Source of the DNA: Verrucomicrobiia bacterium | Lineage (GTDB): Bacteria; Verrucomicrobiota; Verrucomicrobiia; JADLBR01 | Length of the DNA: 64,000 nt | Assembly: GCA_026646655.1 (NCBI GenBank) | Contig: JAPKHT010000005.1 | Location: 23,956-87,955, forward strand | Reading direction: 5' to 3' | Shown here: piece by piece, positions 2,173 through 61,825 of the stretch | Position numbering within the stretch: position 1 is the stretch's first letter | Layout: each line of letters begins with the position of its first letter | Notes under the pieces: model-generated | What the model was told of the DNA's origin: nothing | Databases searched by the model: none | Seen by the model: only the letters and a program-made list of their open reading frames with translations | Made by a program: the position numbers and the translations under genes

Positions 2173-3489
2173 ATGGGACAGCAAGACATGCGTATAGGCG
2201 AGGATGGCGGGCTGACCCGCAGGGGATTTATCGGCAAGGCCGGCGCGGCCGCGGCCGCGGCGGGCGTGGGGCCGTTCTTCGTGATGGGCGAGGAGGCCAA
2301 GGGCGCGAACGAGAAGATCGGGGTCGGATTCATCGGGTGCGGGGGCCGGGCGGGCGCGCACATGAGGCTGGTGAAGCAACTGCAGGAGGCCGGTTATCCG
2401 GTGGAGCCGGTCGCGGTCTGCGACACCTTCAAGCCGCGCCGGGAGCGCGCGATGCAGGCCCTCGGGGTCACCAGGGCCTATGCGGATCACAAGGCCCTGT
2501 TAGCCGATCTTAGCGTGGACCTGGTGTGCATCGCGACGCCTGACCACATCCACGGCCATCAGGCGCTCGACGCGATCGCGGCCGGGAAGGATGTCTATTG
2601 CGAGAAACCGGTGACGCACTGGCGGCAGTTCGAATTGACGAAGAGACTGGCGGACGCGGTCGCGAAGTCGGACCGGGTGTTCCAGTTGGGCACGCAGGCG
2701 ATGAGCGACCCGGTGTGGCGGCAGATGAAGAAACTGGTGAAGGAGGGGCTCATCGGGCAGCCCGTGCACGCCGAGGGAGGCTATTTCCGGACGGGCGATT
2801 TCGGGGAGCGCGGCATGAAGGTGGACGATGCCGAAGTGAGACCCGGGGAGGACCTGAACTGGGAGGCGTTCCTCGGGGACTCGCCGGGGCGGGAGTTCAG
2901 CGCGGACCGCTATTTCCGGTGGCGGCTCTTCGAGGATTACGCGGGCGGCCCGGTGACGGATCTTTACCCGCACAGCCTGACTCAGGTGGTCGATATCATG
3001 GGGCTGGGTTTTCCCGAGAGGGTCACGGGCATGGGCTCGATCGACCGGTACGATTATGAGCTGCGCGAGGTGCCGGACAGTTTTCAGCTGATCGCGCACT
3101 ATCCGGAGAAGGTGACGGTTGTCGGGATGGGGACGCAGGCGAACGATTTCACGGGGGCGACGCGGCGCGGTTCTGGGGCCAGGTGCCCGATCATCCGCGG
3201 CTGGGAGGGGGCCCTGCACATCGACGAGAATAACAAGGAGATCGTCTTCATGCCGGTGCGCGAGAAGGGAGCCAAGCCGCCGCAGCGCATCCCGATCGAG
3301 GGCGGCGAGGACAACGCGGAGCATTGGCGGAACTTGCTAGACGCCTGCCGGGCGCGAAAGAAGGACGACGTGTGGAGTCCGATGGATCTGGCGTTCCGGG
3401 TCCAGACGATGCTCCAGATGGCGATGCTCTCCCACAAGGCGGGGAAGGTCGCGAGGTTCGATGCGGCCAAGCGCGAGATCGTGATCTGA
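2173..3489 (+). CDS. Gfo/Idh/MocA family NAD(P)-dependent oxidoreductase, Tat-exported
   Basis: Tat motif TRRGFIGKAGAAAAAAGV. Rossmann motif GVGFIGCGGRAGAH. AGGAGAGG SD before the ATG at 2173. Confidence 0.85.
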   Translation: MGQQDMRIGEDGGLTRRGFIGKAGAAAAAAGVGPFFVMGEEAKGANEKIGVGFIGCGGRAGAHMRLVKQLQEAGYPVEPVAVCDTFKPRRERAMQALGVTRAYADHKALLADLSVDLVCIATPDHIHGHQALDAIAAGKDVYCEKPVTHWRQFELTKRLADAVAKSDRVFQLGTQAMSDPVWRQMKKLVKEGLIGQPVHAEGGYFRTGDFGERGMKVDDAEVRPGEDLNWEAFLGDSPGREFSADRYFRWRLFEDYAGGPVTDLYPHSLTQVVDIMGLGFPERVTGMGSIDRYDYELREVPDSFQLIAHYPEKVTVVGMGTQANDFTGATRRGSGARCPIIRGWEGALHIDENNKEIVFMPVREKGAKPPQRIPIEGGEDNAEHWRNLLDACRARKKDDVWSPMDLAFRVQTMLQMAMLSHKAGKVARFDAAKREIVI

Positions 3490-3674
3490 ACGGTGGGGAG
3501 AGAATGCGCGGGTTTGACGGGGGCCGAGGCGTGGGGGAAAGCGGTGTGGGGACGCACCGCACTCCAAAGGCCTGCGGCCGAAATGTTGTCCGGGCCGGGG
3601 ATGGCGGACAAATCTCGGGATGCCGCGGAATTTCGGGTGAAGCGCTCTGGGGTGCGGCGGGTCCCCGCGCCGCT

Positions 3675-4565
3675 TTGTCCGAGGGAAGAGAAAGACGGCG
3701 GGACTTTCTGCGGCGTCTGGGGGGCGGCGGCCTTGCCTTCGCCTGCGCGGGGTTGGCGCCCTCGTGCGGGGGGGGGCGGTCGCGGGGGCGCCCGCTGCGG
3801 CTGGCGCTATCCTCGGTGATGTTCTCCGAGGAACCGATCGAGCGGGTGTGCGCGCGGGCCAAGCGGATGGGGTTCGACGGGATCGACATCTGGTGCCCGT
3901 TTGGGCGATGCCGCCATCTGGATGATGTCCTCGAGCGGCTGGGGCCGGAGGGCTTGGGGCGGGTGCTGTCGGCGAACGGATTGGCGCTGAGCAATATCAC
4001 GGTGTACAAGGTGGGGTTCTCCCGTTACGCGGAACTGCTCGGCGGGATGGGCGGCGGGCTGGTGGTGCGCGAATCGCAATATGGCAGGGTCGCCCCGGGG
4101 GAGGTTCGCGGGCGGATCGGGGCGCTGTTCGAATCGCTCAAGCCCGACATCGCGTTGGCGGAGAAGCACGGGTGTCGCCTTGCGATCGAGAATCATTCGG
4201 GGGCCATCCTGAATTCGCCAGACTCGTTTCGCGCCTTCATGGAGATGAACCCTTCGCCGGGGCGCGTGGGGATCGCGCTGGCGCCGTACCACCTGCAGAA
4301 GGGCGGGTTTTCGGTGGAGGAGGTGATCGCCGTCTGCGGATCGCAGATCTGGTTTGTGTACGCGTGGCAGCACGCCGAGGGTGCGGGGCAGTTGCCGGGT
4401 GGCGGGCCGGCGGACTTCCGCCCGTGGCTGAAGGCGCTTGGCGATTCCGGGTACTCGGGATTTCTGAGCCCGTTCACGCATGGCGAAATGGGGGCCGACG
4501 CGATGGAGACCGCGGTGACGAAAGCGTGCGGGTACCTGGATGGCTGCATGGGGGTTGGAGGATAA
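3675..4565 (+). CDS. Sugar phosphate isomerase/epimerase (TIM barrel), Tat signal; start uncertain (TTG 3675, or ATG 3504)
   Basis: Tat motif RRDFLRRLGGGGLAFACAGLAPSC. TIM-barrel motifs (GFDGIDIW, LAIENH). The TTG at 3675 gives a normal-length signal peptide; the upstream ATG at 3504 would give a 60-aa n-region. Confidence 0.65.
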   Translation: MSEGRERRRDFLRRLGGGGLAFACAGLAPSCGGGRSRGRPLRLALSSVMFSEEPIERVCARAKRMGFDGIDIWCPFGRCRHLDDVLERLGPEGLGRVLSANGLALSNITVYKVGFSRYAELLGGMGGGLVVRESQYGRVAPGEVRGRIGALFESLKPDIALAEKHGCRLAIENHSGAILNSPDSFRAFMEMNPSPGRVGIALAPYHLQKGGFSVEEVIAVCGSQIWFVYAWQHAEGAGQLPGGGPADFRPWLKALGDSGYSGFLSPFTHGEMGADAMETAVTKACGYLDGCMGVGG

Positions 4566-4571
4566 CCACGG

Positions 4572-7500
4572 ATGAAGACGGATGGACTCGGATGGAGGTG
4601 GGTGCGCCAGAGAAAGTGTAGCCGAGCGCGTGAGCGCTTGGCCGACGGGGTTGGTGTTGGGCCGGGCCAAACGCTGACGCGTTCGGCTGCGCTGGCCACC
4701 TGGGCGCTCGTGGCGTGGTGCGTGTTTTCGGTTGCCGATGCCGCGCCCGCAAAGGTGCTCTTGTTCTCTGGGCAGAACAACCACGCCTGGGAGAAGACGA
4801 CGCCGGTGCTGAGGGGAATCCTCGAAGATGCGGGGGCCTGTTCGGTGGAGGTGACGGAGGCGCCGCAGGATCTCGATCCGGCGGGGCTGAAGGGCTTCGA
4901 TGTCATCGTCAGCAACTGGAACGCGTGGGGGGCCAAGGGCAAGGGGGCGGCGGTGGCGGATTGGCCGGAGGCGCTGAAGAAGGCGTACGTGGAATTCGTG
5001 GCGTCCGGCGGGGGGCACGTGGCGGTGCACGCGGGCACGTCGTCCTTCGAGGGCTGGGAGGATTACCAGCGGATCTGCGGGGCGACGTGGGGCCTGGGGC
5101 AGACGAGCCATGGCCCGCCGCACGAGTTCGAGGTGCGGGTGGACGACCCATCGCACCCGATCACGCGGGGTTTGGCGGCATTTCGTACGACGGACGAACT
5201 GTGGAATCGCCCCAAGGTGCAGCCGGGATTCCGGGCGATCGCCTCGTCGTTCTCGGAGACGGACCACAAGGGGACGGGGGAATGGGAGCCGACGGCGATC
5301 GTGGGGACCTTTGGGCGGGGCAGGTGCTACGCGCTTCTGCTCGGTCACGATGCGACCGCAATGGGCAACCCGGGATTCAAGGAACTGCTCCGGCGTGGCG
5401 TGGCTTGGGCCGCGGCAGGCAAGGCGGAAGCCGCGGCGGGGAAGGCCGTCCCGGCCTTACGGGACTGGACTCCTGACCAAGGGCTGGCGCCATTCAACGA
5501 GGCGGCCCGGGCGGTGCAGGCCGCCGGCAACGATCCGGCGGGTCGCGCCGAGGTGGCCAAGAAATTGGCGGGGCTATTGGGCGAGCCGGTGCCCGCGGCG
5601 GTGAAGAAGTTCGCCTGCGAGCAGCTGGCGGTCGTGGGAGGGGAGGCGGAGGCGGGGGCGCTCTGCGCGCTGCTGGGTGACGAGGCGCTGGAGACGCCGG
5701 CGAGGGGCGCGCTGGAACGGATTGGTGGACAGAGGGTGGCGGCGCTGCTGCGCGAAGCGTATTCGAGGGCGGAAACACCTGCGCGACGAGCCGGGATCCT
5801 CGGAAGCCTGGCGAAGCTCGGGGACGCGCGGGCGGTGCCTTTGGCGGCCGGGGCGCTGGCGTCGGAGGACGGGGTGCTGCGTGCGGCGGCGATGGTGGCG
5901 CTGGGGCAGATCGGCGGGGAGGCGGCCGCGGGCGCGCTGCTCGGGATCGAGGGGAGCCTGGGCGACGCGGACAAAATGCCGTGGGGCGGCGCTCTGCTGG
6001 CATGCGCCGAGGGGATGGGACCCGCGCAAGGCGGGAGGATTCTGGATCGTCTGGTGAAAGTGGGTCGACCCGCGAGCATCCGTGCCGCGGCGCTCGCGGC
6101 GAAGATCCGGCTGGCGGACCAGGGGGGGTTGGCTCTGGCTGTCCGCGCGCTGCGGGGCGCGGATGAGGCGTTGCGGCGGGGGGCACTCGATGCATTGAGG
6201 GCGGACCGGGGCGCGAGATTGCGGGCATGGCAAGGGGCCATCGCACGAGCGGTGGGCGAGTTTGCCGAGCCGGTGCGCCTGGCGGTGCTGGATGCATATG
6301 TCGCCAATCGCATCCGGGGGGGAGCCCTGCTGGCCGAGGGCTTGGCGAGATCCAAGGATCCCGCCGCTCGCGGTGCGGGTCTGCGCGCGCTTGGCGAGCT
6401 GGGGTCGGAGCCCTATTTCGACATCCTGTTTGATCATCTGGTGGGCGAATCACCGGAAGACCGTGCCGCGGCGACCGACGGATTGGCGGTATTGCGGGCG
6501 GCGTCCACCGACGGGCGACTCATCGCGTTGCTCGAAACGGTTAATCCGACCGCAGCACCCGCGGTGGTCGAAGTGCTGCGGCGCCGGGGCACGACGTCTG
6601 CCGTGCCCGCGCTGTTGACCTTGGCGCGCGGCGGGGATGCCGAGACCGCCAAGGCCGCGGCGCGAGCGGCCGGTGAACTCGGGGGCCCGGCGGCGATCCC
6701 GGGGCTCGCGGATGTCATCTCGAAAGGCGGGCCCGGTGCACAGAGCGCGGCTCAAGTGCTGGCGAAGATCGCCCGGGCGGAACCGGAGGTGGCGAAGGCG
6801 CGGCTGGCGATTGCCATTCCCATGGCGCCGGAATCCGCGCGGGAGACCTTCGGCAAGATACTGGCGCTCGTGGATGGTTCGGCAAAGGGCGGCAGCGCGG
6901 CGGTGCCGGGACTCGGGCGGAATCTGGCGGTGGGCGCCCAGGCCGAAAGCCCGACGGGACTCAAGGCGGACGGTGCCGCCGGCGGGCCGGGCGCCGCCGT
7001 GGATGGCGACCCGGCGACCTATTGGGACGAGCAGAACGGCCAACCGGAGTACCGATTGCGGGTCACGCTGAAAGAGGAGGCGACCGTCTCGAGGTTGCGG
7101 ATCACGGGCTACCGGCACCACGAATTCTCGGCCAGGGATCTCGCGGTGCTGTGCAACGGGCGAGAGGTCAAGAGGGTCGCGGACGCCACGTACGATAACA
7201 ATCAACTGCTATTACAATTTCCAGAAACCCCCTGCAAAGTCGTCGAGCTGCGCATCACGGCCTATTACGGGGGCAGCCCGGCGATCAGGGAACTGGAGAT
7301 CTTTGGCGATGCGGCGCGGAAAGAGGGGGCGAAGGTGCCGGGGGTGCCCTCGGCGGGCGGAGGCCTTTCCTGGGAGAAGGGCGATGATTCCGTGGCGCTG
7401 CTGTCGGCAGGCAAACCGGTGTGGCGGCTCACGCATGGGGCGAAGGAGCCATTCCCCTATTTTGATCCGCTGGGCCTCGTCGGCGGCGGGAATCTGGTGT

Positions 7501-8240
7501 GGAAGAGCCCGCCGGATCACATCCATCATTACGCGCACTGGTTCTCGTGGAAGGTGATCAACGGGGTGAACTACTGGGAATTCGACAAGGCGACGGGCCG
7601 TCCGGTGGGGGTGACGCGGTGCGCGGATGTGAGGCCCGAGACCCGGCCCGACGGTTCGGCGCGGATTGCGATGAGGCTGGCGTATGAGCCGTCCGGGGGA
7701 AAGGCGGTGCTGACCGAGGATAGGATCCTCGACATCTCCGCGCCTGCGGCCGACGGGGGCTACCGGATCGACTGGCGCATGGAATGGACCGCGGCAGATG
7801 AGCCCGTCGTGCTGGATCGGACGCCGCCCCCGGGCGAGCCGGATGGCAAACCGCACGGGGGCTACGCGGGGCTATCGGTGCGATTCTCGAAGGAATTCAC
7901 GGATTGGACCGTCGTCGACAGCGGGGGCGTCCAGGCGATGGACGGTCACCGGAAACGGGCGGCGGCCTCCGAATTTGGCGGGAAGATCGGCGGCAGGGAG
8001 TGCGGGGTCGCGATACTCGATCACCCGGAGAACCCGAACGCGCCGACGCCCTGGTTCTACGTGATCAACCCGGCGGTGCCGTTCGGGTACACGAATCCCG
8101 CCTTCCTGTGCGACTCGCCCAAGCGCATCGAGGCGCGCGGGAAATTGCTGTTGCGTTATCGCGTGATATTGCACGCGGGGCGCTGGGATCCCGGCGCATT
8201 GCGGGCGGCGGTCGCGGCGTACGCGAAGGAGGTGCGATGA
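4572..8240 (+). CDS. Large multidomain secreted protein: ThuA-like (class I glutamine-amidotransferase-like) N-domain, HEAT/PBS-lyase repeats, F5/8-type-C discoidin domain, C-terminal PmoA-like (DUF6807-type) domain
   Basis: 1222-aa ORF with a GGAGGA SD before the ATG at 4572. Domain motifs read directly: KVLLFSGQNNHAWEK...GGGHVAVHAG (ThuA-like), repeated ...ALG.IGGEAAAGALL (HEAT-like), GDPATYWDE...LRITGY (discoidin), HHYAHWFSWKVINGVNYWEF (PmoA-like). The 5' 130 nt contain a full repeat-A copy, so the true start is uncertain. Confidence 0.8.
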   Translation: MKTDGLGWRWVRQRKCSRARERLADGVGVGPGQTLTRSAALATWALVAWCVFSVADAAPAKVLLFSGQNNHAWEKTTPVLRGILEDAGACSVEVTEAPQDLDPAGLKGFDVIVSNWNAWGAKGKGAAVADWPEALKKAYVEFVASGGGHVAVHAGTSSFEGWEDYQRICGATWGLGQTSHGPPHEFEVRVDDPSHPITRGLAAFRTTDELWNRPKVQPGFRAIASSFSETDHKGTGEWEPTAIVGTFGRGRCYALLLGHDATAMGNPGFKELLRRGVAWAAAGKAEAAAGKAVPALRDWTPDQGLAPFNEAARAVQAAGNDPAGRAEVAKKLAGLLGEPVPAAVKKFACEQLAVVGGEAEAGALCALLGDEALETPARGALERIGGQRVAALLREAYSRAETPARRAGILGSLAKLGDARAVPLAAGALASEDGVLRAAAMVALGQIGGEAAAGALLGIEGSLGDADKMPWGGALLACAEGMGPAQGGRILDRLVKVGRPASIRAAALAAKIRLADQGGLALAVRALRGADEALRRGALDALRADRGARLRAWQGAIARAVGEFAEPVRLAVLDAYVANRIRGGALLAEGLARSKDPAARGAGLRALGELGSEPYFDILFDHLVGESPEDRAAATDGLAVLRAASTDGRLIALLETVNPTAAPAVVEVLRRRGTTSAVPALLTLARGGDAETAKAAARAAGELGGPAAIPGLADVISKGGPGAQSAAQVLAKIARAEPEVAKARLAIAIPMAPESARETFGKILALVDGSAKGGSAAVPGLGRNLAVGAQAESPTGLKADGAAGGPGAAVDGDPATYWDEQNGQPEYRLRVTLKEEATVSRLRITGYRHHEFSARDLAVLCNGREVKRVADATYDNNQLLLQFPETPCKVVELRITAYYGGSPAIRELEIFGDAARKEGAKVPGVPSAGGGLSWEKGDDSVALLSAGKPVWRLTHGAKEPFPYFDPLGLVGGGNLVWKSPPDHIHHYAHWFSWKVINGVNYWEFDKATGRPVGVTRCADVRPETRPDGSARIAMRLAYEPSGGKAVLTEDRILDISAPAADGGYRIDWRMEWTAADEPVVLDRTPPPGEPDGKPHGGYAGLSVRFSKEFTDWTVVDSGGVQAMDGHRKRAAASEFGGKIGGRECGVAILDHPENPNAPTPWFYVINPAVPFGYTNPAFLCDSPKRIEARGKLLLRYRVILHAGRWDPGALRAAVAAYAKEVR
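4612..4700 (-). repeat. Dispersed repeat family A, copy 11 (reverse, full length) inside the 5' end of the 4572-8240 ORF
   Basis: gaaagtgtagccgagcgcgtgagcgcttggccgacggggttggtgttgggccgggccaaacgctgacgcgttcggctgcgctggcc. Compare with copy 7. Confidence 0.75.
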
Positions 8241-8295
8241 AAAGCATGGGCGCGGGGATGGTGGCCGAACGCACGGGCGTCTGGCCGGGGAGGCA

Positions 8296-8336
8296 GGTGG
8301 ATCGGCCCAAACGCTTGGCGCGTTCGGCTACGTGCG
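8296..8336 (-). repeat. Partial repeat family A core (second palindrome only)
   Basis: ggcccaaacgcttggcgcgttcggctacgtgcg, between the 1222-aa gene and the preferred Gfo/Idh/MocA start. Confidence 0.6.
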
Positions 8337-8338
8337 AG

Positions 8339-9703
8339 ATGCTCGAATCGCCGGATGGGGGGACTCGCGCCACGCATTCCCGGCGGACGTTTCTCGGGCG
8401 CGGGTTTGCGGCGCTCGGTTTCCCGATGATCGTGCCGGCCCGTGTGCTGGGCGGCCCGGGGGCCCCGTCGAATCGCGTGACCCTGGCGGCGATCGGCTGC
8501 GGCGGGCGCGGGGGTGCGGTGCATCGTGGGATGGCGTCGCTGGAGGGGGTGCAGTACCTCGCGGCGGTGGATCCTTTCAGGGATCGGCGCGAGCGTTTCG
8601 TGCAAACGCTGGATGAGCAGTCCAGGTACGGGGCGGCGGCGAAGCCATGCGCGGATTTTCGGGAGGCGCTGGCGCGGGGAGACATCGATGCGGTGGTGGT
8701 GTGCACCCCGGATCACTGGCATGTGCCGATCGCGATCGCGGCGGCGCGCGCGGGCAAGGACATGTATGTGGAGAAGCCGCTGGGGGTGAGCCTGCGCTGG
8801 GCCAAGGTGTTGCGCGAGGAGGCGGGGCGCCACGGGATCGTTTTCCAGTATGGCACGCAGCAGCGATCGGACCCGAAGTTCCGGTTCGCGTGCGAGCTGG
8901 TGCGCAATGGCCGCATCGGGGAACTGAGGCGCATCGAGGCATGGTGCGCCGACATCTCGAGCCAGTATCAGGCGTTTCACGTCAAAGAGTTCGGGTCGAC
9001 GGAGGAGGTCCCGGTGCCCGAGGGTTTCGACTACGACCTGTGGCTGGGGCCGGCTCCGCCCGCGCCCTTTACGGTGGATCGGTGCACCAGTTACGGGGCG
9101 TGGCACATCTACGACTATGCGCTGGGCTTCATCGCGGGATGGGGCGCGCACCCTCTGGACATCGCGCAGTGGGGCAAGGACGCCGACCACACGGGCCCGG
9201 TGGAGTATTGGGGCACCGGGACCTTGCCCTCAAAGGGCCTGTACGACACGGTCAGCTCGTGGGACGTGATGTGCCGGTATGCCGACGGGATCGAGATGCG
9301 TTTCATGGACCACCGGGCGGCGCGCGAGGTCGTCGCAAAATATCGGACGGCGTCCGACCATGGGACGACGTTTTTCGGCACTCGCGGGTGGGTCAGCGTG
9401 GACCGGAGGGCGGTGCACGCCAGCGATCCGGCCTGGCTGCGGACGAAGTTTGGGCCCGGCGACTCGCGGCTGTACGATAGCCCACGGCACGACCAGAACT
9501 TCATCGATTGCGCGCGGAGTCGTCGGCCGACCATCTGCACGCTGGAGGCCGCGATTCGGTCGGACACGATATCCCATTTGAGCGACATCGCCGTCCGCAC
9601 GGGACGGAAGATCGCCTGGGATCCCGTGAGAGAGGAGGTCGTCGGCGACGGGGCGGCGGCGAGGATGCTGGATCGGCCCGCGCGGGGGCCGTGGGTGGTG
9701 TAG
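8339..9703 (+). CDS. Gfo/Idh/MocA family oxidoreductase, Tat-exported (alternative start 8237)
   Basis: Tat motif SRRTFLGRGFAALGFPMIVPA. Rossmann motif AAIGCGGRGGAVH. The ATG at 8339 gives a 14-aa n-region. The upstream ATG at 8237 has an AAGGAGG SD but would place a repeat-A palindrome inside the CDS. Confidence 0.8.
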   Translation: MLESPDGGTRATHSRRTFLGRGFAALGFPMIVPARVLGGPGAPSNRVTLAAIGCGGRGGAVHRGMASLEGVQYLAAVDPFRDRRERFVQTLDEQSRYGAAAKPCADFREALARGDIDAVVVCTPDHWHVPIAIAAARAGKDMYVEKPLGVSLRWAKVLREEAGRHGIVFQYGTQQRSDPKFRFACELVRNGRIGELRRIEAWCADISSQYQAFHVKEFGSTEEVPVPEGFDYDLWLGPAPPAPFTVDRCTSYGAWHIYDYALGFIAGWGAHPLDIAQWGKDADHTGPVEYWGTGTLPSKGLYDTVSSWDVMCRYADGIEMRFMDHRAAREVVAKYRTASDHGTTFFGTRGWVSVDRRAVHASDPAWLRTKFGPGDSRLYDSPRHDQNFIDCARSRRPTICTLEAAIRSDTISHLSDIAVRTGRKIAWDPVREEVVGDGAAARMLDRPARGPWVV

Positions 9704-11237: not shown

Positions 11238-11322
11238 GGCTCGAGAATTGCCGCATCGCTTCCCGTAGCCGAACGCGTAAGCGTTTGGCCGCCAAAGCCT
11301 CACGGCTTCGGCTGCACTTTCA
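11238..11322 (+). repeat. Dispersed repeat family A, copy 2 (forward)
   Basis: ctcgagaattgccgcatcgcttcccgtagccgaacgcgtaagcgtttggccgccaaagcctcacggcttcggctgcactttcac. Lies between hemH and hemY and overlaps the hemH 3' end. Confidence 0.85.
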
Positions 11323-12391
11323 CCCCCGGCGGTGCCCCGTCTGCGGGGCATGATGTCTGACCCGAATATGCCTCGACCCTGCGCTGGAGGAACTCGACCC
11401 ATTTTGGGTGCTCGTTGAGGCAGGGGATCAGATCGAAGGACTCGCCGCCGGCGTCGAGGAAGGTCTTCTTTCCCATGACGCCGAGTTCCTCGAGGGTCTC
11501 GAGGCAGTCGGAGACAAAAGCGGGGGAAATGAGCAGAAGGCGGCGGGTGCCGGATTTGGCCAACCGCTCCAACTCGAAATCGGTGTAGGGCCCGAGCCAC
11601 GGGTCCTTGCCCAGGCGCGACTGGAAGGAAACGGAGTATCTCTCTGGTGAGAGGCCCGCCAGTGCGGCGAAAGCGCGGGTGGTGGCAAACACCTGGTGCC
11701 GATAGCAGACCTTGTGGACGGGATGGGGAGTGTCGCAGCAATCGGGGCGCGCGAGGCAGTGCGAACCGGAGGCGTCCGCCTTGCGGCAGTGGCGCTCGGG
11801 GATGCCGTGGTAGGAGAAGAGGAGGTGGTCGTGGGGACGATCGAGCCAGGGGCGTGCGCTCGCGACCAGGGCGGCGATGTAATCCGGGTCGGCGTAGAAA
11901 GGGGGCTGGACGGTCAGCCGGCAACCCGGTGCGGCGCGGCGCAGGACCTCACGCACGCGGACGACGACCGTCTCGTAGCTCGACATGGCATAGTGGGGGT
12001 AGAGGGGTATCAGGAGCAGGTCGTCGACGCCGTCGCCCGCGAGGTTGCGGATGACATCCGGGATCGAGGGATTGCCATAGCGCATCGCCAGCGCGACGGG
12101 GACCCGGACCCGCGCGGCGAGGAGGTCCCGCAATCTCCTGCTGCTCAGCACGAGCGGTGACCCCTCGGGCGTCCATATGGAATGATATGCCTCGGCGGAA
12201 TTGTGCACGCGTTTCGGGATGATGGCCCCGCGGACCAGCAACTGGCGGAGGACCCACGGGATATCGATCACCCGCGGGTCCAGGAGGAATTCGGTCAGGT
12301 AGCGCCGCACGTCGGGCACGGATGGCGAGTCGGGCGAACCGAGGTTCACCAGGAGCACGGCGCGGCGGGCGGGGGTTGGGTCGGCGAGCAT
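11300..12391 (-). CDS. hemH: Ferrochelatase
   Basis: 363 aa. Motifs VLLVNLGSPDSP, LIPLYPHY, SYHGIPE and LLISPAFVSDCLETLEE are typical of ferrochelatase. Confidence 0.9.
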   Translation of the reverse strand: MLADPTPARRAVLLVNLGSPDSPSVPDVRRYLTEFLLDPRVIDIPWVLRQLLVRGAIIPKRVHNSAEAYHSIWTPEGSPLVLSSRRLRDLLAARVRVPVALAMRYGNPSIPDVIRNLAGDGVDDLLLIPLYPHYAMSSYETVVVRVREVLRRAAPGCRLTVQPPFYADPDYIAALVASARPWLDRPHDHLLFSYHGIPERHCRKADASGSHCLARPDCCDTPHPVHKVCYRHQVFATTRAFAALAGLSPERYSVSFQSRLGKDPWLGPYTDFELERLAKSGTRRLLLISPAFVSDCLETLEELGVMGKKTFLDAGGESFDLIPCLNEHPKWVEFLQRRVEAYSGQTSCPADGAPPGVKVQPKP

Positions 12392-14909: not shown

Positions 14910-15062
14910 GCTCGAAAATAGCCGCAGCGCCTCCCGCAACCGAACGCGTAAGCGTTTGGCCGCCAATGCCTGACTCGAAAATTCGTAGCCACGGTCGCCA
15001 GACCGTGGACCCGGGGTTGAGTCGAACGATCTCCGGCAACCGCCGGACCAGATGGGCTACAC
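14910..15062 (+). repeat. Dispersed repeat family A, copy 3: two tandem units (forward), the second divergent
   Basis: First unit: ctcgaaaatagccgcagcgcctcccgcaaccgaacgcgtaagcgtttggccgccaatgcctga. Second unit: ctcgaaaattcgtagccacggtcgccagaccgtggac...gggctacactttggctc. Confidence 0.75.
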
Positions 15063-15190
15063 TTTGGCTCGTGCGGAATAATGGTGGCTGTCGATGGGAC
15101 GATGGCCAAACGGACGCTCGCCGGTTTCATCGGGAACTCACGAACTCAGGAAGGGCTGGGAACGGAATGGCGCTCAGTCAGGTGATGTCT

Positions 15191-15215
15191 GGGAGGGCCC
15201 GCGGCCTCGCGGGCC
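15191..15215 (+). repeat. GC-hairpin repeat family C, copy a (GGGAGGGCCCGCGGCCTCGCGGGCC)
   Basis: Perfect 8-bp GC stem GGCCCGCG/CGCGGGCC flanked by GGGAGG. Intergenic. Confidence 0.7.
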
Positions 15216-15589
15216 GCGCTGGCCACGGCAACGGCGGCGTTCGGGTGGATGGCGGACGCCGGGGGCCAACGTCCCTCCCAAAGGAAAGCGTGTGGGTCTG
15301 GCCGGCGACATCCAGACGGATACGCTCCAGACCTTCTTTCCGGCCTTCCTGAGTTCCAGATTGCACAGGCCCGATGCCGATCACAGCCGTCGCCGAGATT
15401 CCCCGCAAAATCGGAAGCATGGCCCGACGATCGCACACTAAGTTCCCTAAAGAGCCATCATAATGTCACAGTCATGTTTCAGAAGGGTTACGGGCGCCCG
15501 CACGACACCGTAACATGATTATTACATTACGTACCTTGACCGGATACCTAACATCGGGCAACAGGGGCGAGACACGAGAGGAAGTTATC

Positions 15590-25976: not shown

Positions 25977-26088
25977 TACCAACCACGGATGGACACGAAT
26001 GGACGCGAATGGTTTCCCTCGTAGCTGCCGACGTAAGGAGGCAGTCCCACTTAACCACGGATGGAAACGGATGAACACGGACGGGCCT

Positions 26089-28148: not shown

Positions 28149-28208
28149 GACGCCGGGGCCGGCGTCCCTCCGCGCTTGAGGCGGGAGGGCCCGCGGCCTC
28201 GCGGGCCG
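28149..28208 (+). repeat. GC-hairpin repeat family C, copy b (two modules: gacgccggggccggcgtc + gggagggcccgcggcctcgcgggcc)
   Basis: Intergenic between exbB and exbD. Both palindromes were read directly. Confidence 0.7.
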
Positions 28209-28227
28209 GGAGCCAGGGAGGCGATCC

Positions 28228-29413: not shown

Positions 29414-29497
29414 CGGGAGGGACGCCGGCCCCGGCGTCCGGGTTTCACCCGCCTGCGGATGCCTTGTGGGACGCGGCCCGCGAGGCCGCGGGCCCTC
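29414..29497 (-). repeat. GC-hairpin repeat family C, copy c (both modules, opposite orientation)
   Basis: gacgccggccccggcgtc ... ggcccgcgaggccgcgggccctccc. Lies upstream of the preferred start of the TPR gene. Confidence 0.7.
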
Positions 29498-29521
29498 CCT
29501 TCCCGGATCTTGCGGTGGGGG

Positions 29522-30918: not shown

Positions 30919-31006
30919 AGAAAATGCAGCCGAGGCCGTGAGGCCTTGGCGGCCAAACGCTTACGCGTTCGGCTACGGGAGGCGATGCGGCATTTTCGGG
31001 TCAGCC
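30919..31006 (-). repeat. Dispersed repeat family A, copy 4 (reverse)
   Basis: Its reverse complement (gctgacccgaaaatgccgcatcgcctcccgtagccgaacgcgtaagcgtttggccgccaaggcctcacggcctcggctgcattttc) is near-identical to copy 2. Confidence 0.85.
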
Positions 31007-31010
31007 GACG

Positions 31011-31035
31011 CGGCCCGCGAGGCCGCGGGCCCTCC
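31011..31035 (-). repeat. GC-hairpin repeat family C, copy d
   Basis: ggcccgcgaggccgcgggccctccc, directly abutting repeat-A copy 4. Confidence 0.7.
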
Positions 31036-31178
31036 CGGCGAGCGTGCCAATGAGCGACCCGCGCGACGACCGGCGTGCGGCGCGTGCCGGGGCCCGCGGT
31101 CTCTTGACAGGGGTCGGGTCTCCGCTAGGGGTTCCGGGTGTGGATGTTGCACATCTGAGGCGTTAGGAGTGACTGGCG

Positions 31179-48465: not shown

Positions 48466-48540
48466 GGATCAAGAATGTCGCTGATCGCCGGGACGAAAAA
48501 GTGTGGCCCATCTGATCCGGCAGCTGCCGGACCACCGGGG

Positions 48541-48630
48541 GTGAAAGTGTAGCCGATCGCCTCGGGCGATTGGCGGCCAAACGCTCACGCGTTCGGCTAC
48601 GGGACGCGATGCGGCCATTTTCGAGTCAGC
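48541..48630 (-). repeat. Dispersed repeat family A, copy 7 (reverse)
   Basis: gtgaaagtgtagccgatcgcctcgggcgattggcggccaaacgctcacgcgttcggctacgggacgcgatgcggccattttcgagtcagc. Confidence 0.85.
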
Positions 48631-49534
48631 ACGCACGGGCATGGCGGCGGATGAGGGTTGGCGCGCGCCAGGCGAACCAGGCGAGGGCGGCGGTGGCGAC
48701 CGGGATGGCGGCGAGGGCCAGGGAGATGGCCGGGCGGGTTGGGGTGAGCCTCGGGTAGAAGTGGAACTGTGCCGTTCCCGAGATGGCCAAGGCGAGGGCG
48801 GCGGTGGCCAGCAGGGCGCCGGCGGCCGTTGCCACCCGGTCGCGGGGCGTCAGGTGATCGGGGTCGATGAAGGATCGTGGCCCCGAGCCAAAACCCCGGG
48901 CGGCGAGCGCCTCGGCGAGATCCCTGGCGCCCTCGAGTGCCGAGGCGAGGAGGGTGCGCCACAAGAGGCCCGCGGCCGCGGCGCGCGACCGGAGGGTGCC
49001 CGCCCGCAGGTCGATGCCTTGCGACCAGAGGATCGCCTGAATCTGGCGTGCTTCTCGGAGCAATGATGGGATGAGTTGAATCACGATGCCCAAGGTCACG
49101 GCCGTGCGGGGCGCCGCCTTGCCGAGCAGGCCGAGGGAGCGATCCGTGTCACTGAGCCGCGCCCAGAGGGCGAATGTCGCCATGACGGTGGCGAGTTTCG
49201 CGCCGGCGATCGCGCCAAACGCGACAGCCTCTAGAGTGATCGCGCTCGCGCCGGGCCACCAGGCTGGGAGCGGTGACAGGATCGTGGAACCGGCCCCCGA
49301 GAAGAAGGCGTTGATCGCAGCCATCATGAGGGCCGGGGGCAGTGCGAACAGCGCCGTTTGGCGAAACTGGCCATCGCGGGCCAGCCAAGCGAAACTGGCG
49401 AGCGTGGCCCCGACCACGGCGCCGGGTTGATCCACGGCCAGAAGCCAGAGCAGGAACCCCATCGCAAATGTGGCGCCGGCGAGCGGATGGATGGGTGGGG
49501 CACTCCGCCGGGGGCATTCGAGGGGTCTGATCAT
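48626..49534 (-). CDS. ecfT: ECF transporter transmembrane (T) component EcfT/CbiQ family
   Basis: 302 aa, multi-TM, with the C-terminal EcfT coupling motifs ...LLREARQIQAILWSQGIDLRAGTL...ARGF. Confidence 0.8.
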   Translation of the reverse strand: MIRPLECPRRSAPPIHPLAGATFAMGFLLWLLAVDQPGAVVGATLASFAWLARDGQFRQTALFALPPALMMAAINAFFSGAGSTILSPLPAWWPGASAITLEAVAFGAIAGAKLATVMATFALWARLSDTDRSLGLLGKAAPRTAVTLGIVIQLIPSLLREARQIQAILWSQGIDLRAGTLRSRAAAAGLLWRTLLASALEGARDLAEALAARGFGSGPRSFIDPDHLTPRDRVATAAGALLATAALALAISGTAQFHFYPRLTPTRPAISLALAAIPVATAALAWFAWRAPTLIRRHARAC

Positions 49535-50580
49535 GGCGGGATCGCCCGGGGGCGGATGGGGAGCGGTAGCGTGACGCGTCGCCCGTCCACGATCATGAGG
49601 CCAGCGGCGCCCGCAAGGGATTCGGGCGAGCGCGCGAGCAGGCCTGCGGTCGCCCGCGTTTCAACATCGCCCGTTCCCGTGACGAGCCAGAGGCACGCCC
49701 CTCGCCGAGCGCCGGTCTTGGCGGCCAGGATGGCGCCGCCGGGCGCAGGGGGTCCAGGCGCCTCGCCGTGCCAATCGCGACCCGACGCGCCGCGGTCCGA
49801 GAACTCGACCAGCAGCCCGGTCTTTGCCGCATGGCGGTGGATGTCGGCGACCGCGGGATGGGCGACCAACGCGCCCCAGGGGCCGAGCAGCAGCGGGAAG
49901 GACGTCTCCACATCGATCGTTACGGAGGGGCCGAAAGGGACTTGCACGACATCGCGGACGCCGAGTTCCTTCAACCTGGCGGCGATCGCGCTGGCCTCCG
50001 CCTCAAAACCCGCGGCGTGGAGGAGCCGCGTGGGCGCCGTCTTGCCGCCGTGGCCATGCGCGAAAGGCTCTGGGAACGCGCCGACGAGGGCCCCGACCTG
50101 AAAGCCCTCCGACCATGGATGGTAATCCCACCAGATGTGATCGCCGGACGCCGGACGATATTGCGCGGCGCCCACCGGGGACAGCACCCCGTTGATAAAA
50201 TAGAACCAGTCCTCGTCGCGTCCCTCGAGAGTGCCCGAGCGCAGGTCGCCGATGGCGGTCACGAAGCCGGCCCGCGTTGCCTCGATGGGGATCGACGCGC
50301 GGAGCACATCGACGACGCTGCCGCCGGGGCGTTGGGCGCTCTGGACGATGGGCTCCGCCCCGAACGCGCGCGTGACGCGGAGCGTGACGTCCGCCGGGGG
50401 CGAGGCGGGGAGCGGCATGGGCGAAAGGCCGAGGACAATGGCCGTGGCAGCGAGAATGAGCGACCGGCGCGGCGGCCCGCTTGGCCACGCATTGCCCGCC
50501 CTTCGCCGGTCAAAGGGGGCCCGCGTCGCCACGGTCTGGCGAACGTGGCCACGGATTTTCGAGTCAACCGCCTGGTGCAT
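49531..50580 (-). CDS. Membrane-anchored periplasmic protein with a DUF4430-like segment (possible B12-binding, transcobalamin-beta-like)
   Basis: N-terminal TM or signal anchor LILAATAIVLGLSPMPLPA. The segment DWFYFINGVLSPVGAAQYRPASGDHIWWDYHPW resembles the DUF4430 W-Y-VNG...GD-I-W-Y motif, recalled from memory. ATGA-coupled to ecfT. Confidence 0.55.
   Translation of the reverse strand: MHQAVDSKIRGHVRQTVATRAPFDRRRAGNAWPSGPPRRSLILAATAIVLGLSPMPLPASPPADVTLRVTRAFGAEPIVQSAQRPGGSVVDVLRASIPIEATRAGFVTAIGDLRSGTLEGRDEDWFYFINGVLSPVGAAQYRPASGDHIWWDYHPWSEGFQVGALVGAFPEPFAHGHGGKTAPTRLLHAAGFEAEASAIAARLKELGVRDVVQVPFGPSVTIDVETSFPLLLGPWGALVAHPAVADIHRHAAKTGLLVEFSDRGASGRDWHGEAPGPPAPGGAILAAKTGARRGACLWLVTGTGDVETRATAGLLARSPESLAGAAGLMIVDGRRVTLPLPIRPRAIPP
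50521..50580 (-). repeat. Partial repeat family A unit (reverse) overlapping the 5' end of the 49531-50580 CDS
   Basis: The reverse complement ...ttgactcgaaaatccgtggccacgttcgccagaccgtggcg is about 90% identical to the second unit of copy 3 (14963-15012). Confidence 0.55.
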
Positions 50581-54272: not shown

Positions 54273-54515
54273 GGCAGTGCGCCCGATCCCGCGGTCCTCA
54301 TTCTTCATTGTGGCGATGAAGTTTTATGCGCCCACCGCACCCGCGGCGGGCGAATGAGAGGGAGCGGCGCAGATATTCGGACTTCGGGCCTCGAACCTCG
54401 CTCCCGCCTTCACCGCCGGACTTGGACCGGAGACTGGCATCTTGGGAGTCTGTAACCCGTTACCGTAGCGCAACTGTTCCCGATTCTCACGGGATTCCCT
54501 GGAGCCGCACCCATC
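54250..54515 (-). promoter_or_regulatory. Cobalamin (AdoCbl) riboswitch with SD-sequestering expression platform
   Basis: The minus-strand RNA reads GGGUGCGGCUCCAGGGAAUCCCGUGAGAAUCGGGAACAGUUGCGCUACGGUAAC...GCACUGCCCGGCCUCCAGG...CUGGAGGAUUCACAUG. It matches the Rfam RF00174 core (GGUGC..AGGGAA..GGUGnAAnUCC..ACnGUAA) and a B12-box-like GCACUGCC. The anti-SD CCUCCAGG pairs with the SD CUGGAGG of the downstream gene. Confidence 0.55.
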
Positions 54516-54660
54516 TTGTCACCCGGTTCCCCGCATCGCGTGCCGGGGCCGGGCCGGATCTAGCAAAGAACCGGATCCAGCCTGATCGCGCGGGGGCGGG
54601 GAGTCAAGGGGAGATTCGGGACCGCGTGCCGAGGCGAGGGGGCGTCGGCCCCAGGAATTG

Positions 54661-57995: not shown

Positions 57996-59195
57996 TCAAA
58001 AGCAAAAAGTCGAGATCCCCGCCACCGCGGCGATCAGCAGCGCATAGGTGATCGGAAACGCCCACCGGCAGCGGTGATCGATGCGGTGGCCGCGCGCCGA
58101 CTCGCCACGCTTTTCGCAGGCGCCGACCCAGAGGTTGACCGCGACGGTGGCGCACATCAACAGGAAACTGACGTTGAGGAAGCCGTGGATGAATGTCACG
58201 TACGCGATATCCGGGAGGATGCCGCCGATGACCATCTGGTAGGCGACGACCGTCAGGATGCCGACGAAGGACACGCTGACGCGGTCTCCGGCGGCGGACC
58301 GGTCCATCCAGAAGACCGACCAGGAGAGCATGACGATCACCACCAGCGGCAGCATGATCAGTCGCACCACGAAGAACGACTGCCTGCGCACATCGATCGC
58401 GAGGACGAATGCGGAGGACGCGCCCTCGGTGCCGGCGTAGGGGGCCTCGAGTTTTCGTGTCGACGAGGTAACGTCGCGGAGATCCCACTGGGGAACGCGG
58501 AGTTGCGGCGGGGGCTGCTCCCGGTCATCCTTTGCCACCTCGAGCGCCACGTCGCCCGACCCGAAACCGAGGACCTCGAAGACCGCCTCGAGCCGCTGGC
58601 GATCGAACGGATAGCGGCGCAGGTTGAGGTCCGACTTGGCGACGGCGTTAAATGTCTCTATCTGGGTGCACGTCCCATCCGGGCGGACGCGCAGCAGGAT
58701 CGCGTCCCGGTCGCACGTGCCGGAAACATTGGCGAGCACCACCTGGGGATACCAGGAGGGTGAGATCTCATCGCACTGATACGAGCCCTGATAGATTTTT
58801 TCGGCGACGCCCTCTTTGGCGGGGTCGAAGGCCTGCCGCGGGTCCTTCCAGACAAGTGTCAGGACGCCGGTGAACTCGAAGGTCTCCGCCTCGTCGTCGA
58901 TCCCGTTGATTTCCCAAAGGTGGAACGAGGCGCGGACGACCACAGGACGGTCGCCAGGAGGCGGCGTCAGCGCGCCGGGTGGGACGGATTGTGCCGGCGC
59001 GGCGCAGGGCGCCGCGATCACCGATGCCGCGACGAGCGACAGGGTCGGCTTGAAAAATTCCGTGGCCGAACGCGCCAGGCGTTTGGCGCGAGTCACCAGC
59101 GCCGTCGGCCAAACGCTTGCGCGTTCGGCTACATTTTCCCGGCGCGCCGCGTCCGGCGCGAGGCCCGGCCCACGCTGTTCAGACACCCGGGCCAT
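57996..59195 (-). CDS. Pentameric ligand-gated ion channel (Cys-loop receptor family, prokaryotic pLGIC); start uncertain (ATG 59195 or GTG 59096)
   Basis: Extracellular ligand-binding-domain motifs (PVVVRASFHLWEINGIDDEAETFEFTGVLTLVWKDPR) followed by four TM helices (M1: FFVVRLIMLPLVVIVMLSWSVFWM). The N-terminal about 45 codons are encoded by repeat-A copy 8. Confidence 0.75.
   Translation of the reverse strand: MARVSEQRGPGLAPDAARRENVAERASVWPTALVTRAKRLARSATEFFKPTLSLVAASVIAAPCAAPAQSVPPGALTPPPGDRPVVVRASFHLWEINGIDDEAETFEFTGVLTLVWKDPRQAFDPAKEGVAEKIYQGSYQCDEISPSWYPQVVLANVSGTCDRDAILLRVRPDGTCTQIETFNAVAKSDLNLRRYPFDRQRLEAVFEVLGFGSGDVALEVAKDDREQPPPQLRVPQWDLRDVTSSTRKLEAPYAGTEGASSAFVLAIDVRRQSFFVVRLIMLPLVVIVMLSWSVFWMDRSAAGDRVSVSFVGILTVVAYQMVIGGILPDIAYVTFIHGFLNVSFLLMCATVAVNLWVGACEKRGESARGHRIDHRCRWAFPITYALLIAAVAGISTFCF
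59052..59140 (+). repeat. Dispersed repeat family A, copy 8 (forward, two palindrome cores)
   Basis: gaaaaattccgtggccgaacgcgccaggcgtttggcgcgagtcaccagcgccgtcggccaaacgcttgcgcgttcggctacattttccc. Lies inside the 5' end of the pLGIC ORF. Confidence 0.8.
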
Positions 59196-59199
59196 CAGT

Positions 59200-61668: not shown

Positions 61669-61734
61669 GTGTGGCTTCCGTTCGGGGGTTGCGTTGGTAG
61701 GTTCAGGAATTTGTTGTTGTGTGAGGGGCAGCCA

Positions 61735-61825
61735 CAAGCGGGAAAGAGTCTAGCCGATCGCCCCAGGCGATGGGCCGATGGTCTTGGTGGCGCGGGCCAA
61801 ACGCTGGCGCGTTCGGCTACAAATG
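61735..61825 (-). repeat. Dispersed repeat family A, copy 9 (reverse, 3' arm diverged)
   Basis: gagtctagccgatcgccccaggcgatgggccgatggtcttggtggcgcgggccaaacgctggcgcgttcggctacaaatgctcgc. Confidence 0.75.

Follow-up and report, generated by a model that had tools for sequence, protein, structure and literature searches.

Palindromic REP doublets between candidate start codons and signal peptides at three gene junctions of a verrucomicrobial genome

The 64,000-nt stretch analysed here (the window; GC = 66.7%), taken from contig JAPKHT010000005.1 of a Verrucomicrobiia bacterium, contains three open reading frames (ORFs) in which a short palindromic repeat, family A, lies between a candidate start codon and a signal peptide. 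Are the starts of these genes mis-called, or is the repeat translated as part of the signal-peptide n-region? The ORFs concerned encode a 1222-aa ThuA/HEAT/F5_F8/DUF6807 protein opened by ATG 4572 (site 1), a 488-aa Gfo/Idh/MocA oxidoreductase starting at ATG 8237 (site 2) and, downstream of a sulfatase gene, a 399-aa pentameric ligand-gated channel (pLGIC; site 3). A preliminary description of this DNA had placed a family-A unit between the start and the secretory (Sec) or twin-arginine (Tat) signal peptide of each ORF, had reported GGAGGA with ATG 4572, AAGGAGG with ATG 8237 and an ATG (59195) 4 nt past the sulfatase stop, and had read similar basic peptides in the same frame (QTLTRSAA, PKRLARSAT and TRAKRLARSAT); all of these features were found again, with the repeat in frame and stop-free. 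What had to be amended is the single unit: at each site an inverted pair of units folds together into one long hairpin.

Translation from a conserved upstream start through the doublet, as a tolerated n-region extension, is the reading that we hold, with moderate confidence, on sequence comparison. The comparison establishes what the repeat is and how it is built, that orthologues devoid of repetitive extragenic palindromic (REP) elements lack it, that frame and upstream start are conserved, and that ancestral starts have been lost. The upstream codon would then be the start in use, and the hairpin may modulate translation or mRNA stability at the gene junction. In tightly packed operons without intergenic space, such doublets (REPINs), which are of the type mobilised by REP-associated tyrosine transposases (RAYTs), would land at the boundary of two genes, and the insertion would put them into the beginning of the second gene, before the part that encodes its signal peptide. 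Initiation would take place upstream of the element (ATG 4572 at site 1, ATGA 8237 at site 2, ATG 59195 or GTG 59186 at site 3), the ribosome would read through the hairpin, and the repeat, which in one frame yields a basic peptide (KRLARSAT or TLTRSAA), would form a long, tolerated n-region before an otherwise normal Sec or Tat signal peptide. Such additions are likely accepted because they lie N-terminally in the signal peptide, in a part removed by cleavage. The relatives compared are metagenome-assembled genome (MAG) or metagenome contigs throughout (loci designated L, proteins P).

Family A, a REP/REPIN family

Family A is a REP/REPIN family, as indicated by the number of its matches relative to shuffled sequence, its GTAG head, its covarying stems and the long hairpins formed by its doublets. 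The unit is a 22-nt hairpin, GTA-GCCGAACGC-loop-GCGTTTGGC (with the GTAG head, gtaGCCGAACGC-(3-5 nt)-GCGTTTGGC), in whose stem the GTAG strand has a G.T wobble and the other strand an A.C mismatch. With at most three mismatches, the 26-mer consensus was matched 11 times in the window vs 0 times in 100 shuffles. Units are headed by GTAGCC, and the GTAG tetranucleotide is a defining feature of REPs in the E. coli literature. The outer GCCGA/TTGGC pairs are kept across sister sub-families, while the inner stems change compensatorily (AAGCC/GGCTT, TCGCC/GGCGA and the GCCACGGTC/GACCGTGGC type), so that pairing is kept in the sub-families GCCGAACGC/GCGTTTGGC, GCCGAAGCC/GGCTTTGGC, GCCGATCGCC/GGCGATTGGC and GCCACGGTC/GACCGTGGC, with the G.T wobble fixed on the GTAG strand. 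The units form tail-to-tail inverted doublets at gene boundaries, every copy lying at a gene end or start on a crude gene map of the window, and their spacing is 20-23 nt at the three focal doublets and at 61753-61817. The predicted minimum free energies of the doublets are -56.4 kcal/mol at site 1 (z = -6.0), -43.0 kcal/mol at site 2 (z = -3.5) and -45.5 kcal/mol at site 3 (z = -4.6).

The same 24 specified bases are present in Verrucomicrobiota MAGs labelled Oleiharenicola, Verrucomicrobiales, Chthoniobacteraceae and others (loci L009-L035). If these taxonomic labels are correct, an identical REP core extends over different orders, including Opitutales (Oleiharenicola), which is an unusually wide range for REPs. 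One locus from an Oleiharenicola MAG (L010) encodes a RAYT-like ORF with HLH and Y-x3-NPV motifs, which matches NF047646 (REP-associated tyrosine transposase) with E = 1.1e-13 and 51 bits, under the NCBIfam curated cut-off of 80 bits, and which has family-A REPs on both sides (22-47, 661-686 and 737-762). Within the 64-kb window, no RAYT was found by tblastn with a YafM sequence as query. The elements appear mobile: the REPIN of site 3 is present in the window and missing in L001 (an 86% identical orthologue) and L002, and those of sites 1 and 2 are missing in L004 and L039. An Rfam scan at the gathering threshold detected no known RNA family at the repeats, and scans for consensus promoters and terminators detected nothing at the REPINs. 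A search with the 30-aa REPIN-encoded peptide against a library of 1.84 billion representatives returned an unrelated translated repeat array as its sole match; the query is too short and the search is uninformative on spread.

Start codons and orthologous loci at the three junctions

Signal peptides were called by eye from the translations, a Sec signal being a basic n-region followed by a hydrophobic core (h-region) and A-x-A, and a Tat signal being S/T-R-R-x-F-L. By this inspection all three sites encode such signals, namely ...TRSAA-LATWALVAWCVFSV-ADA|A (Sec, site 1), SRRTFLGRGFAALGFP (Tat, site 2) and ...RSATEFFK-PTLSLVAASVIAAPCA-APA|Q (Sec, site 3), and the homologues carry equivalent ones. 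At each site the element lies within the ORF, in frame and free of stops, and is missing in orthologues. The junctions had no spacer (ATGA and GTGA overlaps), and the REPINs ended inside the downstream ORF. The features of site 2 are as follows, SD denoting a Shine-Dalgarno sequence.

8226..8240, + strand: start of the Gfo/Idh/MocA ORF, with the SD AAGGAGG at 8226-8232 and ATG 8237 overlapping the upstream stop TGA as ATGA
8261..8286, + strand: REP unit 1, with one stem mismatch
8287..8303, + strand: apical loop of the REPIN, with GGGAGG and the in-frame GTG 8297
8304..8331, - strand: REP unit 2, read on the + strand as PKRLARSAT, with the in-frame TTG 8315; near-invariant in four lineages
8339..8341, + strand: ATG homologous to the ancestral start, the start chosen by NCBI (P0190, 454 aa)
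8378..8404, + strand: twin-arginine motif SRRTFLGRG, kept in all orthologues

Six orthologous loci were compared at site 2, two REP-less (L004 and L039) and four REPIN-bearing (the window, L003, L006 and L036, from different samples and assemblies). The window's REPIN is read as VAERTGVW...PKRLARSAT, with the Tat motif 15 codons on. The SD, (A/G)AGGA(G/A)GT, and the ATG of the ATGA overlap are kept in all six loci, the A of ATGA supplying position 3 of the final upstream sense codon, CCA in five loci and CGA in one; as background, third-position A amounts to 4.9% in the window's genes, CCA to 5.1% of the Pro codons and CGA to 4.5% of the Arg codons. The same ATGA opens a 13-residue n-region in the REP-less loci (MNQRSDGGRRGMVTRR, MNQVRGRAVGGAVSRR). 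From the ATG to the S/T-RR motif, the four REPIN-bearing lineages have an identical length, 8 + 24 (REPIN) + 15 codons, without any indel, and their flanking segments of 8 and 15 codons are merely 43-67% identical; third positions of the mature part are 61-69% identical (87% in the closest pair). By contrast, the spacer 3' of the Gfo gene measures 108, 77 and ~205 nt in three REPIN-bearing lineages, and 427 and 152 nt in the REP-less loci.

The in-frame ATG 8339, located after the repeat, had no place in the preliminary description. In the window, MLESPDGGTRATHSRR (MLESPDGG) aligns with MNQRSDGGRRGMVTRR (MNQRSDGG of the REP-less P0193), which identifies ATG 8339 as the homologue of the ancestral start. 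This codon is intact only in the window, and is now ATT in L006, CTG in L003 and GCG in L036; given this decay, it had ceased to be the start before the lineages diverged. In L003, L006 and L036 an in-frame ATG, GTG or TTG is not reached until 28-37 codons past the REP, beyond the RR motif. Since no canonical start lies between the REPIN and the RR motif in three of the four lineages, the Tat signal requires initiation in or before the REPIN. For the window's own Gfo gene, either ATG 8237 or ATG 8339 could be the start. A candidate target-site duplication, GTGCGATG and GTGCGAGATG flanking the insert in the window, was discarded, as it is not seen in the other three lineages.

Site 1, at the 5' end of the 1222-aa ThuA gene, is composed of the following features.

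4557..4574, + strand: start region, with the SD-like GGAGGA at 4557-4562, the upstream stop TAA at 4563-4565 and the candidate ATG 4572
4563..4605, + strand: second repeat motif, AACCACGGATGRA..., containing ATG 4572 and ending at the in-frame GTG 4602 (family D9)
4618..4643, + strand (GTAG strand +): REP unit 1, containing the in-frame TTG 4638
4665..4690, - strand (GTAG strand -): REP unit 2, read on the + strand as GQTLTRSAA
4692..4742, + strand: h- and c-region of the signal peptide, LATWALVAWCVFSVADA, with a predicted A-D-A cleavage before APAK

The REPIN is read here as ...CSRARERLAD...GQTLTRSAA and leads directly into LATWALVAWCVFSVADA|APAK, the ThuA domain beginning at residue 61. The window, L003 and L036 have in common the upstream xylose-isomerase-like gene, its GGAGG(A/G) and stop, an ATG 5-6 nt on, and the REPIN. 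From the ATG to the h-region these three loci differ by zero indels; indels are limited to 1 nt in the stop-to-ATG spacer and to 2 codons in the c-region of L003. Codons 2-6 are wholly different in the three loci, yet the ATG is retained in all of them. In L036 both hairpin arms have decayed, with frame and length still intact. R37 is the arginine closest to the h-region in both the window and L036; L003 has a serine there, with a new arginine two codons earlier (position 35). The first canonical start 3' of the REP is, in the window, a GTG in the middle of the h-region. The REP-less orthologue of L004 starts at a GTGA overlap and gives VRRPWLGLAFLLL....

A start inside the REPIN, at or near its apical loop (GTG 8297, GTG 59096, TTG 4638 or TTG 8315), with only the gene-proximal REP unit coding and the upstream ATG opening no more than a fortuitous in-frame extension, is the main alternative, possible but doubtful. 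GTG 8297 and its context GTGGATCGG are kept in 4 of 4 REPIN-bearing lineages, and this codon is in the predicted loop beside an SD-like GGGAGG (window and L036); GTG 59096 of site 3 is likewise in the loop, in-frame GTGs are present in the site 1 loop of L003 and L036, and the resulting n-regions would have a more usual length. However, the site 1 loop of the window contains no in-frame start, TTG 4638 being the only candidate and buried in the stem, and a 30S initiation complex would not fit into a loop of 13-20 nt on a stem of ~30 bp. Moreover, an internal start leaves unexplained both the retention of the upstream codon (the A at site 2 in all six loci, the ATG at site 1 in all three, with diverged flanks) and the conservation of length upstream of the REPIN. 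Under either type of start at least the proximal REP unit is coding.

The site 1 region gave further observations. The second repeat family consists of GGATG motifs with a ~10-nt period (AACCACGGATGRANACGGATG...), at 4563-4605, 25980-26012 and 26052-26084 of the window and at 1674-1760 of L016, where it is an inverted repeat. Its copies are placed directly after stop codons, shortly 5' of gene starts, the 26052 copy ending 6 nt before the ATG of a signal-peptide gene; the motif presumably resembles CsrA-type GGA sites. The 1222-aa protein is devoid of a sulfatase domain (~450-495 aa) found between ThuA and HEAT in its closest orthologues (1624-1717 aa; P0122-P0124, L036), suggesting that the domain was deleted in the lineage of the window; in P0124 it is ThuA that is missing. 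Furthermore, window 2721-5448 and positions 1-2727 of L036 (sister MAG CAZYWZ01) form an identity mosaic, with blocks of 98-100% at 3441-3980 and 4881-5120 and of 75-85% at 4041-4700 and 5121-5300; one boundary, ~4700, falls at the 3' limit of the REPIN of site 1. This mosaic could reflect recombination or a chimeric MAG consensus, and no rate conclusions are therefore drawn from this pair. An argument that the REPIN evolves faster than synonymous sites, from a rate comparison of the window with L036, was dropped for the same reason.

Site 3, upstream of the pLGIC gene, comprises the following features.

59058..59199, - strand: replacement segment of 142 nt (67 nt unique + REPIN) in place of 1049 nt of L001
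59107..59132, - strand (GTAG strand = pLGIC sense): REP unit 1, perfect consensus
59062..59089, + strand: REP unit 2, read on the - strand as AKRLARSAT
59094..59195, - strand: candidate starts, namely ATG 59195, GTG 59186 (the NCBI choice) and GTG 59096 (in the REPIN apical loop)
58992..59057, - strand: remainder of the pLGIC signal peptide, FFKPTLSLVAASVIAAPCAAPA, where homology to REP-less orthologues resumes

ATG 59195 (- strand) follows the sulfatase stop (59200-59202), and the REPIN is read as VAERASVW...TRAKRLARSAT, then the signal peptide EFFKPTLSLVAASVIAAPCAAPA|QS; GTG 59096 is present and in frame. The NCBI model starts at GTG 59186 and covers the repeat; this protein, P0001 (396 aa), belongs to a Verrucomicrobiae MAG and is identical to the window's pLGIC protein. 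In the closest orthologue, L001 (protein 86% identical), the gene order is sulfatase, a 177-aa membrane-protein gene, an LssY_C gene and the pLGIC gene, the latter starting from a GTGA overlap. Window 59500-59200 corresponds to L001 3663-3963 (96%) and window 59057-58700 to L001 5013-5370 (86%); the content of L001 3964-5012, that is both intervening genes, pLGIC codons 1-4 and the native GTG, is gone from the window, and a near-consensus REPIN stands at the junction. No second copy of the 67 nt between the sulfatase stop and the REPIN was found in the window or the compared loci. In L002 (72% identical) the protein has a short MK... n-region, with no REP at the pLGIC position. As the next canonical start after the REP falls within the h-region, the pLGIC signal peptide needs GTG 59096, GTG 59186 or ATG 59195. 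The pLGIC gene is thus a concrete case of a native start lost in a 1-kb replacement, whose product must now start in repeat-associated DNA. Among the genomes compared, the replacement occurs in this one only, and the event is recent and lineage-specific; its polarity, deletion vs insertion, rests on the window/L001 comparison alone, the LssY_C/pLGIC neighbourhoods being variable.

It is very improbable that the affected genes, above all pLGIC, are recently inactivated or no longer exported, or that the junctions are MAG assembly chimeras formed at repeats. The confinement of the site 3 event to this genome, with removal of the native start and two neighbour genes, and the window/L036 mosaic with its boundary at the REPIN edge would agree with such an origin. 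Against it, the three ORFs (1222, 488 and 399 aa) run unbroken from end to end and their Pfam domains are complete, sites 1 and 2 recur in independent assemblies from different samples (L003, L006, L036 and L037/L038), and NCBI and Logan assemblies encode identical proteins (P0001, P0121).

The REPINs could also be regarded as ordinary untranslated intergenic or 5'-UTR repeats, with starts downstream (ATG 8339; non-canonical or in the h-region elsewhere) and with ORF extensions as a by-product of high GC, which seems improbable overall. A genome of 67% GC is rich in spurious long ORFs, the REPIN can be read without stops in two of three frames, the flanks evolve neutrally, and ATG 8339 is called by the NCBI pipeline; moreover, most other REPs near gene starts are ordinary, being followed by a normal ATG and a short n-region (the sulfatase at 61668, L002, L009 and L025). 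Against this explanation, sites 1 and 3, and three of the four lineages at site 2, offer no ATG, GTG or TTG in the stretch from the REPIN to the hydrophobic core or twin-arginine motif: the next start would cost the n-region and part of the h-region, and the homologues all have signal peptides. In addition, L036 has GCG in place of the ancestral site 2 ATG, and length and frame are kept, in contrast to the wide variation of a true spacer close by. For sites 1 and 3 and the site 2 relatives, an element with no translated part is unlikely.

The two possibilities raised in the preliminary description can thus be separated in part. The tolerated n-region insertion is the better supported one: n-regions are short in the REP-less L004, L039, L001 and L002, and the REPIN-bearing orthologues keep the upstream start and frame; in them either the ancestral start has disappeared or no canonical start ever existed 3' of the repeat. 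Mis-called starts apply to the extent that ATG 8339 is usable in the window and that the loop GTG 8297, GTG 59096 and TTG 4638 are still candidates, the proximal unit being coding even so. Orthologue conservation beginning only downstream of the repeat, together with a good alternative start, had been named as the pattern expected of simple intergenic repeats; it is absent at sites 1 and 3 and in three of the four site 2 lineages. Profiles of GC3 and codon position around the three starts were discarded, 12-codon windows being too noisy to place a start.

Several points weigh against translation through the REPIN from the upstream start. The REPIN-flanking segments show no codon-position periodicity and evolve at a roughly neutral rate, as untranslated DNA would. 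The REP units are kept at all codon positions, with 83-94% identity vs 61-69% for mature-part third positions, and the single change in unit 2 is nonsynonymous and located in the hairpin loop, from which it follows that the constraint acts at the nucleotide and not at the protein level. Ribosomes starting upstream would meet a hairpin of -43 to -56 kcal/mol within a few codons, which is a severe obstacle, ATG 8339 is intact in the window and was chosen by the NCBI pipeline, and the sample behind the frame bias described below is tiny. All comparisons were made on MAG or metagenome contigs, and the window/L036 mosaic (blocks of 100% vs 75-85%) makes the rates of this pair unreliable. Neutral flanks and nucleotide-level constraint plausibly also fit a translated sequence that is unconstrained as protein, such as a cleaved n-region extension.

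Reading frame and comparison with known systems

Two further ORFs carry a REP near their start. In a sister genome (L032), the SD GGAGGAAGAGG, an ATG and 7 more codons precede a REPIN read as VAER...LARSAT, followed by the h-region of an HlyD-family protein. A fourth, weaker case in the window involves a REP of another stem type.

50528..50549, - strand: REP of another stem type inside the DUF4430 ORF 49531-50580, between ATG 50580 (4 nt past the stop of the preceding gene) and the signal-like RRSLILAATAIVLGLSP

The proximal unit is read in the CGT-TCG-GC frame (R-S-A; with the 5' half, K-R-L-A-R) in all four independent insertions, namely sites 1-3 and L032. This unit is stop-free in all three frames, and the chance of finding the RSA frame four times out of four is ~1/27. 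A first survey of REP units in long ORFs was swamped by spurious GC-rich ORFs, and a codon-usage filter was then added; the survey filtered by coding potential gave frames of 11:3:1, or ~8-9:3:1 after dropping orthologous duplicates and one unit mislabelled by the pattern. The RSA-frame excess is suggestive only, the sample being small and the survey pattern cross-matching both orientations of the quasi-palindromic unit.

A speculative and rather unlikely extension is that these Verrucomicrobiota have repeatedly recruited the REPIN family to serve as a 5'-end cassette in genes of exported proteins, the RSA frame giving a basic n-region (KRLARSAT) and some copies adding an SD-like motif and a GTG in the loop. 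The RSA frame of the four insertions, the frame skew of the survey and the nucleotide-level conservation of the REPs at orthologous sites would be consistent with it. If this were true, genes would survive indels that destroy the native start, as at site 3, and a conserved hairpin of ~-50 kcal/mol would act as a regulator at translationally coupled gene junctions.

REPINs have been described as extragenic inverted REP doublets with a spacer, forming one long hairpin (PMC3116915, PMC3337134). The REP/REPIN-RAYT systems of E. coli and Pseudomonas treated in these papers share with family A the short imperfect palindromes with a 5' GTAG, the many copies at gene boundaries, the spaced inverted doublets that form a single hairpin, the RAYT-like gene between the same REPs (here a candidate in a related MAG) and the nucleotide-level conservation at orthologous sites. 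They differ in that several of the present elements are located inside apparently translated 5' gene ends, in that the host belongs to the Verrucomicrobiota, and in that no RAYT was found in the 64-kb window, with the L010 match under the NCBIfam cut-off.

In-frame palindromic insertions in coding genes are reviewed in PMC10969869 for Rickettsia palindromic elements (RPEs; Ogata et al. 2000, cited there) and intragenic ERIC/BOX elements. As portrayed there, these too are mobile palindromes lying in frame in genes that remain intact, missing in orthologues and adding a peptide. RPEs measure ~150 bp and mostly occupy internal, surface-exposed positions, whereas the REPINs considered here are ~75 nt long, probably unrelated in sequence and always at the extreme N-terminus before a cleavable signal peptide, with the one at site 3 also replacing the native start codon. 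Homology to the RPE families is not expected, as length (~75 vs ~150 nt) and host phylum differ.

Within operons, REP hairpins act as mRNA elements, for example those of E. coli malE-malF. As in malE-malF, a stable hairpin is found here directly 3' of the upstream stop in a co-directional gene pair and could, by analogy, protect the upstream mRNA or alter downstream expression. Unlike those REPs, which are untranslated, the present ones are put in the downstream ORF by overlapping or near-abutting (ATGA) junctions. The nearest precedents are thus REPIN/RAYT systems as regards the element, and RPEs and intragenic ERIC/BOX elements as regards in-frame insertion; what differs from these is a REPIN-type element specifically before signal peptides, conserved at orthologous positions and once substituting for a deleted start.

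These junctions bear on annotation and possibly on regulation. Start calls conflict here, as NCBI includes the repeat in the pLGIC gene and not in the Gfo gene, and other pipelines include it in all three; in REP-dense, GC-rich genomes, many mis-set or inconsistent starts of exported proteins are expected. The orthologous loci indicate that REPINs can persist in translated sequence across lineages with a synonymous divergence >30%. If the predicted stable hairpin affects translational coupling, it may constitute a mobile, reusable regulator of relative expression within operons.

Other repeats and neighbouring features

Repeats also remodel the 3' ends of ORFs, as seen from a ferrochelatase ORF (11300-12391) that ends in a REP (window 11291-11347, - strand), its stop codon being in the loop of the REP unit; the product ends in ...EAYSGQTSCPADGAPPGVKVQPKP, which extends the C-terminus by 17 residues relative to the L039 orthologue (...EAYLASA).

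Further hairpins with a GTAGCC head or a GCTAC tail, and with other stems, are present at 75-108, 15032-15065 and 48516-48549 (D7) and at 14988-15009 and 50528-50549. They have an AAA(A/G/T)TGTAGCC head in common, and some have a CTCGAAAAT flank; several REP sub-families therefore occur in one genome. A palindromic repeat unrelated to family A, GGGAGGGCCCGCG-gcct-CGCGGGCC, is found in four copies at gene ends (15191-15223, 28183-28215, 29467-29499 and 31004-31036).

The 5' leader of the sulfatase gene (61669-61737, - strand) is A/C-rich (cacacaacaacaaattcctgaacctaccaacgcaaccc...) and has no SD before ATG 61668, unlike the SD-coupled sites 1 and 2, and two styles of translation initiation seem to occur side by side in this genome. 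Finally, a cobalamin riboswitch (RF00174, 45.5 bits) was identified at window 54349-54568 (- strand), upstream of a minus-strand cluster that includes the DUF4430 gene.

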